Source: Escherichia coli
GTDB taxonomy: Bacteria; Pseudomonadota; Gammaproteobacteria; Enterobacterales; Enterobacteriaceae
Assembly: GCF_003334815.1 (NCBI RefSeq)
Contig: NZ_QOWO01000078.1
DNA length: 4,207 bases
Reading direction: 5' to 3' (one strand)
Under the pieces are notes generated by a model, which worked only from the letters and a program-made list of their open reading frames with translations, had not been told where the DNA came from and did not search any database. How positions within the stretch are numbered: position 1 is the stretch's first letter; each line of letters starts with the position of its first letter. Shown here in pieces: positions 259-855 of the stretch. The translations under genes were made by a program, and so were the position numbers.

Positions 259-855
259 TCACCGGAGAATATCTGTGATATCCACAAGTTTTCTGTCGCA
301 CAGCCAGTCCTGCGCTTCACGCACCACGCTACTGTCGGGTTTCACCGCTTTCAGCGATGATGCCAGTCGCTTGATCAACATAACCAGTTCCCGTGTCTGT
401 ATGTCCGGCATTGTCTCCGGCGGAGCAGAGGGACTCTCATTTCCGACGCCCATCCCATGCGCTTCCAGTGTGGCACGGACAAACCAGGCGGCATCGACCA
501 GTTGCTGGCGAATCCAGGTCAGATCGGCATTTCTGTCACGGGCTGCCATTCGCTCACCCGACAGCGCCTTGCTGATATGGCTGCGCACCAGATTATCCAG
601 GAGTTCCTGCGCTTCTTCCGGTGAAAAGCCACCTGGTATCTCTGTGCGCAACAGTCCTTTCCTGTACAGTAGCTGCAGCAGATCAATCTGCGACCGCACT
701 GCAACTATCAGTACATAACGGACAATATTCGCACTGGCGGTGGTTTCTGTATCATTCAGCAGTTCCTCCGGATCATTACCACCGGTATTGCAGAGCAACG
801 GCAACAGAGGTCGCATCCACACAGGAACCTGATATTGTTCGTCTGATTTCATCAT
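259..855 (-). CDS. Uncharacterised 198-aa protein translationally coupled to psiA (hypothetical leading-region protein)
   Basis: Minus-strand ORF ending at TGA 259..261. I place the start at ATG 853..855, which overlaps the psiA stop (ATGA) and has GGAGAA 6 nt upstream. The track's longer version begins at a GTG (886..888) inside psiA. The translation starts [21 protein letters not shown]; I recognise no domain in it. Confidence 0.75.
   Translation of the reverse strand: MMKSDEQYQVPVWMRPLLPLLCNTGGNDPEELLNDTETTASANIVRYVLIVAVRSQIDLLQLLYRKGLLRTEIPGGFSPEEAQELLDNLVRSHISKALSGERMAARDRNADLTWIRQQLVDAAWFVRATLEAHGMGVGNESPSAPPETMPDIQTRELVMLIKRLASSLKAVKPDSSVVREAQDWLCDRKLVDITDILR

Follow-up and report, generated by a model that had tools for sequence, protein, structure and literature searches.

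IncI1, IncK and IncB/O plasmids are major carriers of extended-spectrum beta-lactamase (ESBL) and other resistance genes, and PsiB, a product of the leading-region operon considered here, has RecA as its target; PsiA and PsiB are themselves translocated by an F-type secretion system. Early expression of such operons has been described in pESBL: RNA-seq of early transconjugants showed six leading-region operons up by ~500-fold at most within 15 min, and these operons are driven by single-strand DNA promoters for which data from 5' rapid amplification of cDNA ends have been published (PMC12672017). The promoters fall into classes, ssi1-3 forming class 1 and a second class lying 5' of ardA and klcA (PMC12672017). 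Here we consider a stretch of 4,207 nucleotides from Escherichia coli (contig NZ_QOWO01000078.1 of assembly GCF_003334815.1; hereafter the window), in which psiB and psiA are followed by a 198-codon open reading frame (ORF) known as ygaA. Based on database surveys, exhaustive homology searches, structural models and published transcriptomic data, we find that ygaA is a real gene under purifying selection and that its product, as judged from its homologues, is built of three independently shuffled modules otherwise found in the early genes of temperate phages.

The closest described phage proteins are those of the Ea22/EaA type. Ea22 promotes host survival and lysogeny (PMC7093339) and is a tetramer through a coiled coil (PMC10834534); nucleic-acid binding has been raised by the authors of an Ea22 study as one possibility.

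Both the ORF and the place where it lies are already on record. An identical protein (WP_000978012.1) is encoded by R64, the archetypal IncI1 plasmid, the gene was named ygaA, as a downstream gene of the ssi3 operon, in a study of evolving IncI1 ESBL plasmids (bioRxiv 10.1101/2022.07.06.498992), and a transposon study of pESBL places 'YgaA / Hp15' directly after PsiA (PMC4288162). UniProt names its homologues 'Eaa protein' or 'YgaA', the latter being the source name of one homologue, and the supplement to the leading-region survey of Samuel et al. 2024 lists them as family 835 ('42 Eaa; 12 YgaA', 55 ORFs) with no further annotation (PMC11541004). We found no functional study of ygaA, Eaa or the N-terminal module in the literature, where the sharing of the name ygaA with chromosomal norR muddies searches. 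What appear to be new are the division into three modules, the kinship of modules B and C to phage proteins of the Ea22/EaA type, the identification of module A as an extensive domain family that has gone unannotated, is modelled with confidence and has no counterpart among solved structures, and the evidence against a PsiA-specific partnership.

Conservation and early expression of ygaA

Over the window, identity to IncI-gamma/K1 and IncI1 plasmids from Salmonella and E. coli is 99.8%, and in these plasmids the same ORF lies between psiA and ardA under the label 'hypothetical protein'. Its genes are all on the minus strand, in the order 3' part of ykfF (DUF905), ParB-like gene, psiB, psiA and ygaA; on I-complex plasmids the order is ykfF-yfhA(parB-like)-psiB-psiA-ygaA, with ygaA as the last annotated gene before the ardA promoter. 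At the psiA junction the minus strand reads GGAGAA-CGCAAT-ATG-ATG-AAA-TCA-GAC, and translation gives 198 residues (MMKSDEQYQ...DITDILR) before a stop codon at 259-261. Direct reading thus bears out an earlier description made without database searches (the sequence-only reading), which had reported a 198-residue ORF starting on the psiA stop codon through an ATGA overlap, with its own Shine-Dalgarno motif GGAGAA. An alternative in-frame GTG at 888, giving 209 residues, is present in the ORF list; we place the start at the ATG at 855 because the RefSeq annotation and the N-termini of module-A homologues agree. Since an ATGA overlap joins psiB to psiA as well, psiB, psiA and ygaA are translationally coupled in series.

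All the annotated records that we inspected have ygaA as a coding sequence at the same position. It is full-length in 1,692 PLSDB plasmids, that is ~98% of ~1,720 carriers (>=90% identity), and it occurs in 1,177-1,195 of 5,426 complete E. coli genomes (22%), 1,177 of which have a full-length copy; 1,267 of its places in these genomes are on plasmids and 19 on chromosomes. Compared with a 94%-identical allele from a Shigella sonnei plasmid, ygaA shows 16 synonymous and 11 non-synonymous differences, a ratio of non-synonymous to synonymous substitution rates (dN/dS) of 0.21, with psiA at 0.08 and psiB at 0.11 in the same comparison. The gene is therefore real and under purifying selection.

These figures bear on the view that ygaA is a passenger, a phage-derived mosaic ORF kept by linkage that has little or no role in conjugation or serves, for example, in phage-plasmid conflict or superinfection exclusion. 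The gene is dispensable in the pESBL transposon screen (PMC4288162), loss-of-function mutations in its operon were selected in experimental evolution, where transfer rates rose in one host (PMC10104558), truncated, frameshifted and fusion alleles (P0028, P0036, P0041) are common, and ygaA is confined to one plasmid complex. The near-universal full length among carrying plasmids and the dN/dS of 0.21 nevertheless speak against mere carriage, as does the constraint on module A described below, and we consider a passenger unlikely.

Truncated or frameshifted ygaA alleles occur commonly in databases (P0028, P0036, P0041, P0034 and P0050, chimeras included). The chimeras bear N-termini of KlcA, SSB or MobA, and their source is probably deletion within the leading region.

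The same psiB-psiA-ygaA-ardA order is carried by pESBL, where induction has been shown at the level of the operon (PMC12672017, PMC10104558, PMC4288162), and ygaA has been assigned to the ssi3 operon (bioRxiv 10.1101/2022.07.06.498992). The gene lies on the first-transferred side of the relaxase genes nikA/nikB, and its order and orientation relative to them support a place on the first-transferred side of oriT; the transferred strand serves as its template, and a single-strand promoter lies upstream. Its early transcription is taken from the published operon-level data. Co-expression with psiB and psiA in the first minutes after DNA entry, as the sequence-only reading proposed, is thus supported at the operon level by the pESBL literature and by the translational coupling.

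Between ygaA and ardA lies a spacer of 462 nt which, as single-stranded DNA, folds into a long hairpin (-105 kcal/mol, z = -3.76 against shuffles). Its arms are 32 nt long and 88% complementary, one of them at window 39-70 and its partner outside the window, and at window 1-157 the sequence matches that of F immediately 5' of klcA with 92% identity. The hairpin and the likeness to the region upstream of klcA fit the reported class 2 promoter 5' of ardA and mark the end of the operon; with such a single-strand promoter hairpin directly after it, ygaA therefore closes the psiB/psiA operon. A scan of the region against Rfam gave no match, and scans for promoters and terminators gave counts not above the shuffled expectation.

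Modular anatomy and phage kinship of YgaA

Whole YgaA has no significant match in Pfam (E <= 0.001), NCBIfam, PADLOC or PDB sequences; weak similarities to ExsD_C (E = 0.37) and TilS_C (E = 0.035) were dismissed as chance. These sensitive searches agree with the sequence-only reading, which did not recognise the protein as a known module. Its description of the gene as uncharacterised stands as far as family and function go, there being no recognisable family and no reported function, but the ORF itself has been annotated for years as ygaA.

An exhaustive phmmer search of 1.84 billion representative proteins with YgaA returned 245 matches in separate sets, some covering only residues 1-70 (module A), some only residues ~71-135 (module B), some modules B and C together and some only residues ~149-198 (module C). 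One 149-residue protein of a Klebsiella/Enterobacter phage-plasmid (P0099) combines modules A and C without B. By these separate homologue sets and the A-C protein lacking B, YgaA is a three-module mosaic. MAFFT alignments of module fragments (A1 and the X-padded A2) misaligned the NTGGN of module A with the PGGF of module B, and the notion that modules A and B are an internal repeat was rejected (hhalign probability 1.6%).

AlphaFold2 modelled the full-length protein with a predicted local distance difference test (pLDDT) score of 73 and a predicted template-modelling (pTM) score of 0.39. In this model, module A has helices at residues 12-20, 29-33 and 44-65 (pLDDT ~90), module B forms a helical hairpin (79-98 / 105-134; pLDDT ~60-77) and module C comprises three short helices (pLDDT ~70-76). 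YgaA is a 22-kDa, mildly acidic protein (isoelectric point (pI) 5.2) with no hydrophobic segment; it is all-helical in the model and would be cytoplasmic.

Module A of YgaA reads W.MP.WM.PY..I.NTGGN..EEL.ND...N..R...AV.SQ..LL, and residues 8-66 hold all invariant positions of a family motif (W.MP.WM...NTGGN..E.L.ND...N..R....SQ..L) that defines a three-helix domain of ~65 residues. A profile built from 29 diverse copies recovered 430 clusters, mostly of stand-alone proteins of 66-126 residues (usually ~70) from metagenomes and enterobacterial genomes. None of these clusters comes with a precomputed Pfam domain, and 'phage-related protein' is the one descriptive source name given for them; a Pfam scan of 116 members gave 0 matches, with no helix-turn-helix or other DNA-binding family. 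Across the family, down to ~37% identity, 6-9 positions are invariant, W13, M14, G25, G26, D35 and N43 among them. Such constraint across the 430 clusters argues for a selected molecular function and tells against a passenger ORF. Modelled on its own, module A reaches a pLDDT of 92.8. The structure prediction and fold comparison that the sequence-only reading had called for thus gave a confident model of module A; fold searches with the YgaA models returned generic helical matches only, and no solved structural analogue of module A.

The contexts inspected for relatives of YgaA are all early or accessory regions of mobile elements. In a lambdoid Enterobacter prophage, the module-A gene comes immediately after an HTH_ParB gene, in the interval from the replication genes to Q; in a Mu-like element, it is in the early region between Gam and GemA; elsewhere it is found on a phage-plasmid, and in arrays of small genes with DUF932 or DUF4942 that resemble leading regions. 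At one phage-plasmid locus an RNase_T/Lar_restr_allev gene is located two genes upstream. In each context inspected the module-A gene overlaps the preceding gene, but the genes 5' of module A (encoding PsiA, HTH_ParB, DUF2786/DUF7168, HI_1489_N, a 694-residue and an 80-residue protein) have no mutual similarity, and a conserved upstream partner was rejected on this ground.

On large metagenomic contigs, DUF4942 near module-A genes is fused to a weakly matching RrnaAD (rRNA-adenine-dimethylase) methyltransferase domain (L010 7873-9558), and it is also present as a separate gene in the IncI1 leading region (L001 3852-4700). These occurrences hint at a shared pool of leading-region genes.

Could YgaA be a binder of nucleic acid or a regulator, attaching to single-stranded DNA or hairpins, timing the shut-off of single-strand promoters or helping second-strand synthesis? 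Its partners in expression are SSB, a ParB-like protein and PsiB, each acting either on DNA or on filaments of RecA on single-stranded DNA, in one prophage the gene before module A is of the HTH_ParB type, and the authors of the Ea22 study raise such binding for Ea22. The acidity of YgaA as a whole and of modules A and B (pI ~5.1-5.2), together with the failure to detect a helix-turn-helix or any other DNA-binding family, makes this proposal improbable.

Module B (LPGGF..EA.EL...LV.SHISKALSGE.M....R.ADL.WI...V.AAWFV) belongs to a narrow family of 68 clusters, mainly from enterobacteria, and is 56-62% identical to a segment of exo-xis proteins in Stx1, Stx2 and other lambdoid phages. For instance, residues 73-151 are 56.5% identical to a 252-residue PhiR5_1 protein annotated as Ea22 and encoded between exo and xis, and identity to the Stx-phage proteins is ~61%. 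The module is also present in prophage mosaic proteins that start MTTITKE...IALASLEAE and often end in DUF551, in a 412-residue hypothetical protein of a P1-like IncY plasmid adjoining two 'ead/Ea22-like family' genes, and in a 108-residue ORF of ~500 IncI2 plasmids. Carriers of module B also bear DUF551 or Ead_Ea22 domains; PF13935 (Ead_Ea22) is matched by 3 of 21 module-B proteins, through parts other than module B, and one carrier weakly matches a Lar-like restriction-alleviation PHROG. PHROG 660 and PHROG 924 resemble module C, and to some extent module B, in their C-terminal parts (E-values 1e-7 and 1e-6), and module C has a weak match (H95) to the 'EaA protein' of a Salmonella phage (43.5% identity over 46 residues, E = 1e-3). 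We regard the reality of the gene, its conservation, its position in the operon, its modular anatomy and its phage kinship as firm.

In the IncI2 plasmid pC1 (NZ_LC469775.1, L007 6863-7189), the 108-residue ORF consists of an Ea22-type N-terminus and module B; located 3' of traL and close to the relaxase genes, it points away from the latter. An Ea22-like module has therefore been acquired by a second group of plasmids too.

Relation to PsiA and proposed function

The ATGA overlap invites the idea that YgaA is a dedicated partner or cofactor of PsiA, made in fixed proportion to it and joining PsiA and PsiB in their action on RecA and the SOS response. With one exception (H48), every annotated full-length match listed has psiA beneath or next to it, and the I-type C-terminus of PsiA travels with ygaA, the I-type psiA 3' end being found in 1,879 plasmids and ygaA in ~1,720. 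The DNA homology between the window and F (86% over 3.2 kb) breaks at ~996, 144 nt before the psiA stop and inside its last 48 codons, and PsiA, 64% identical overall to its F counterpart, is visibly more divergent in its last ~58 residues; comparison of the two sequences thus indicates a mosaic breakpoint inside psiA. However, a plasmid backbone held in common would by itself produce such linkage of the psiA 3' end with ygaA. The parB-like/psiB/psiA region is present in at least 5,000 PLSDB plasmids, most of which lack ygaA; in F, psiA is followed by flmC and hok, as the sequence-only reading had stated, and tblastn finds no ygaA there. Wherever typing was seen, the carriers of ygaA are I-complex replicons. 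The adjacency of psiA and ygaA, whose conservation the sequence-only reading had wished to see surveyed, is invariant within the I-complex but absent outside it: ygaA shares a transcription unit (as known from the literature) and translational coupling with psiA, but does not co-occur with it across the psiA-bearing plasmid families. In addition, modules A, B and C are found in phages, prophages and phage-plasmids without PsiA (PF06952) neighbours, and the genes overlapped by module-A genes are of five unrelated kinds. Taken together, the occurrence of psiA without ygaA, of the modules without PsiA and of unrelated upstream genes argues that the overlap reflects the usual close packing of operons in mobile elements and is no evidence of functional pairing. 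The suggestion of a PsiA cofactor is thereby weakened; ygaA is probably not a dedicated PsiA partner, and we regard joint action with PsiA as very improbable.

The reading that we favour, although tentatively and with somewhat less than even confidence, is that YgaA is an early-acting oligomeric adaptor that binds a host protein, with a net benefit to establishment and independently of PsiA. The operon would be transcribed from its single-strand DNA promoter as the plasmid strand enters the recipient, and ygaA would be translated by coupling to psiA. Its product would be assembled from modules drawn from the mosaic early accessory proteins of temperate phages, those like lambda/Stx Ea22 and P22 EaA. 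By analogy with the coiled coil of Ea22, the hairpin modules B and C may provide oligomerisation or a scaffold. For module A, we propose contact with a host protein via the invariant surface of the domain (P11, W13, M14, the T24-G-G-N27 loop, D35, N43, R46 and Q56), and the host function would be transiently neutralised or re-routed, favouring survival and establishment of the incoming element. YgaA would then be a plasmid counterpart, acting without PsiA, of the effect that Ea22 has on host survival and lysogeny. The oligomerisation, the binding of a host protein and the benefit to establishment are our inferences.

Several observations weigh against this adaptor model. In the transposon screen already cited, pESBL was maintained and transferred between laboratory E. 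coli strains without need for ygaA, and likewise for its neighbours (PMC4288162). The absence of a mating phenotype in K-12 fits either a target absent from K-12 or true dispensability. A truncated YgaA of 156 residues without module C (P0036) has 187 member sequences. YgaA has no match to Pfam Ead_Ea22 (PF13935, E <= 0.001), lacks the Ea22 N-terminal domain and does not match in sequence the C-terminal domain of lambda Ea22, whose structure is solved; the analogy with Ea22 is therefore one of a shared module and of gene position only. Modules B and C are modelled with moderate confidence only, and the alignment behind the full-length model (A3) was padded outside the matched module with the query's own residues, which keeps the register, contributes no inter-module covariation and may exaggerate the conservation seen.

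A narrower version of the adaptor model, with which it is not in contradiction, is that YgaA is a specific anti-defence protein directed, like ArdA and KlcA, against restriction, CRISPR, abortive-infection or other immunity of the recipient. ygaA is located between the anti-SOS genes and ardA, in a region enriched in anti-defence genes (PMC11541004), with early expression of its operon (PMC12672017). YgaA is a small acidic protein without housekeeping relatives in its family, and its relatives occur in phage early regions where anti-defence genes cluster, one of them near the RNase_T/Lar_restr_allev gene; the Lar-like PHROG match of a module-B carrier points the same way, and no phenotype would be expected in laboratory K-12 if the target were absent. 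Yet YgaA has no similarity to described anti-defence families in Pfam, NCBIfam or PHROGs, fold searches gave no structural resemblance to DNA mimics or known inhibitors, and the argument is a positional one. Neither sequence nor fold likens YgaA to ArdA, KlcA/ArdB, ArdC, Ocr-like DNA mimics or Acr, and a specifically anti-defence protein seems rather unlikely. An anti-defence or establishment role in the broad sense is plausible from position, and ygaA is a fair candidate for a plasmid establishment factor.

We also put forward, as a possibility with more doubt than confidence attached, that module A is a portable 'warhead' inhibiting one conserved host protein of the immune or stress response. 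It would then represent an undescribed, widespread family in the first-expressed operons of plasmids, temperate phages, Mu-like elements and phage-plasmids, which in the I-complex was fused to Ea22-type oligomerisation modules and joined to an anti-SOS operon. If this is true, a factor for establishment or anti-defence has so far gone unrecognised in about a fifth of complete E. coli genomes.

Surrounding features and comparison with described systems

The coordinates of ygaA, of its modules and of the surrounding features are collected in the table.

Table. Position of ygaA, its modules and its neighbours in the window
Feature	Position	Strand	Remarks
ygaA coding sequence, 198 residues and stop	259..855	(-)	direct reading; protein identical to WP_000978012.1 of R64
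ATGA overlap	852..855	(-)	ygaA start ATG 855-853 and psiA stop TGA 854-852, TG in common; direct reading
Shine-Dalgarno-like GGAGAA	862..867	(-)	6 nt 5' of the ygaA ATG, within the psiA 3' end; direct reading
Module A, residues 1-70	646..855	(-)	conserved domain, three helices
Module B, residues 71-135	451..645	(-)	helical hairpin
Proline-rich linker, residues 136-148	412..450	(-)	predicted disordered; pLDDT <50 for residues 135-148
Module C, residues 149-198	262..411	(-)	small helical module; match to PHROG 660 / PHROG 924 C-terminus
psiA, 239 residues	852..1571	(-)	DNA homology with F stops at ~996
psiB, 144 residues	1568..2002	(-)	ATGA overlap with psiA at 1568-1571
ParB-like gene, 652 residues	2057..4015	(-)	same operon, upstream
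Start of the 462-nt ygaA-ardA spacer	1..258	(-)	single-stranded DNA hairpin; spacer continues past the window (locus L001 8797-9258)

In work on IncI1 the ParB-like gene goes by the name yfhA, and its F name is yfjB (PMC10104558). In the 54-nt gap between its stop (2057) and the psiB start (2002) there is a GC-rich inverted repeat with a 12-bp stem (TGCCGCCCCGTCTCCGGCGGGGCGGTG, window 2020-2046), which could be an attenuator or an mRNA-stabilising hairpin within the operon. For psiB, the ORF list gives a GTG start at 2005 (145 residues) and RefSeq the adjacent ATG at 2002 (144 residues). On the downstream side, a GTG-initiated ORF of 54 residues (window 156-320, minus strand) overlaps the ygaA 3' end and extends into the spacer; 'ygbA' has been given as a small gene after ygaA in the same operon (bioRxiv 10.1101/2022.07.06.498992).

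ygaA belongs to the most strongly induced early operon of IncI1, IncK and IncB/O plasmids, and 1,195 of 5,426 complete E. coli genomes contain the gene. The results presented here make it experimentally approachable, as a phage early-gene mosaic whose N-terminus belongs to a large unannotated family with an apparently new fold and which has no tie to PsiA, and they connect the establishment of plasmids with the biology of exo-xis and Ea22 in lambdoid and Stx phages, itself poorly understood. YgaA is a candidate and not the discovery of a function; to the specialist, a prevalent gene made testable will be useful rather than surprising.

With PsiB and PsiA, ygaA has in common the operon, the ATGA coupling and the operon-level early expression in recipients, but YgaA has no sequence or fold relation to them, and the psiB/psiA pair is far more widespread and is found without it. 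ArdA and KlcA/ArdB are, like YgaA, small acidic proteins encoded as neighbours in the early-expressed region, with ardA ~460 bp downstream; no homology joins them to YgaA, and fold searches gave generic helical matches only. The stand-alone module-A proteins have the same domain of ~65 residues, each encoded by a small gene that overlaps the preceding one in an early or accessory region; they differ in being mostly 66-126 residues long without modules B or C, and their upstream partner is never PsiA. The P22-type EaA proteins, PHROG 660 and PHROG 924 match YgaA in their C-terminal parts, in keeping with the UniProt label 'Eaa protein', whereas only the C-terminal ~50-120 residues are held in common. 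As for Ea22 of the lambda/Stx exo-xis region, it is likewise a mosaic of exchangeable modules around helical regions, belongs to the accessory operon that its mobile element transcribes first and is dispensable in the laboratory, and module B is shared between YgaA and exo-xis proteins, one of them annotated as Ea22. YgaA nevertheless differs in having module A at its N-terminus in place of the Ea22 domain (MTTITKE...IALASLEAE) and in ending in ILR rather than in a K/R-G-E motif, and its gene is carried by a conjugative plasmid under a single-strand promoter, whereas ea22 is under pL.

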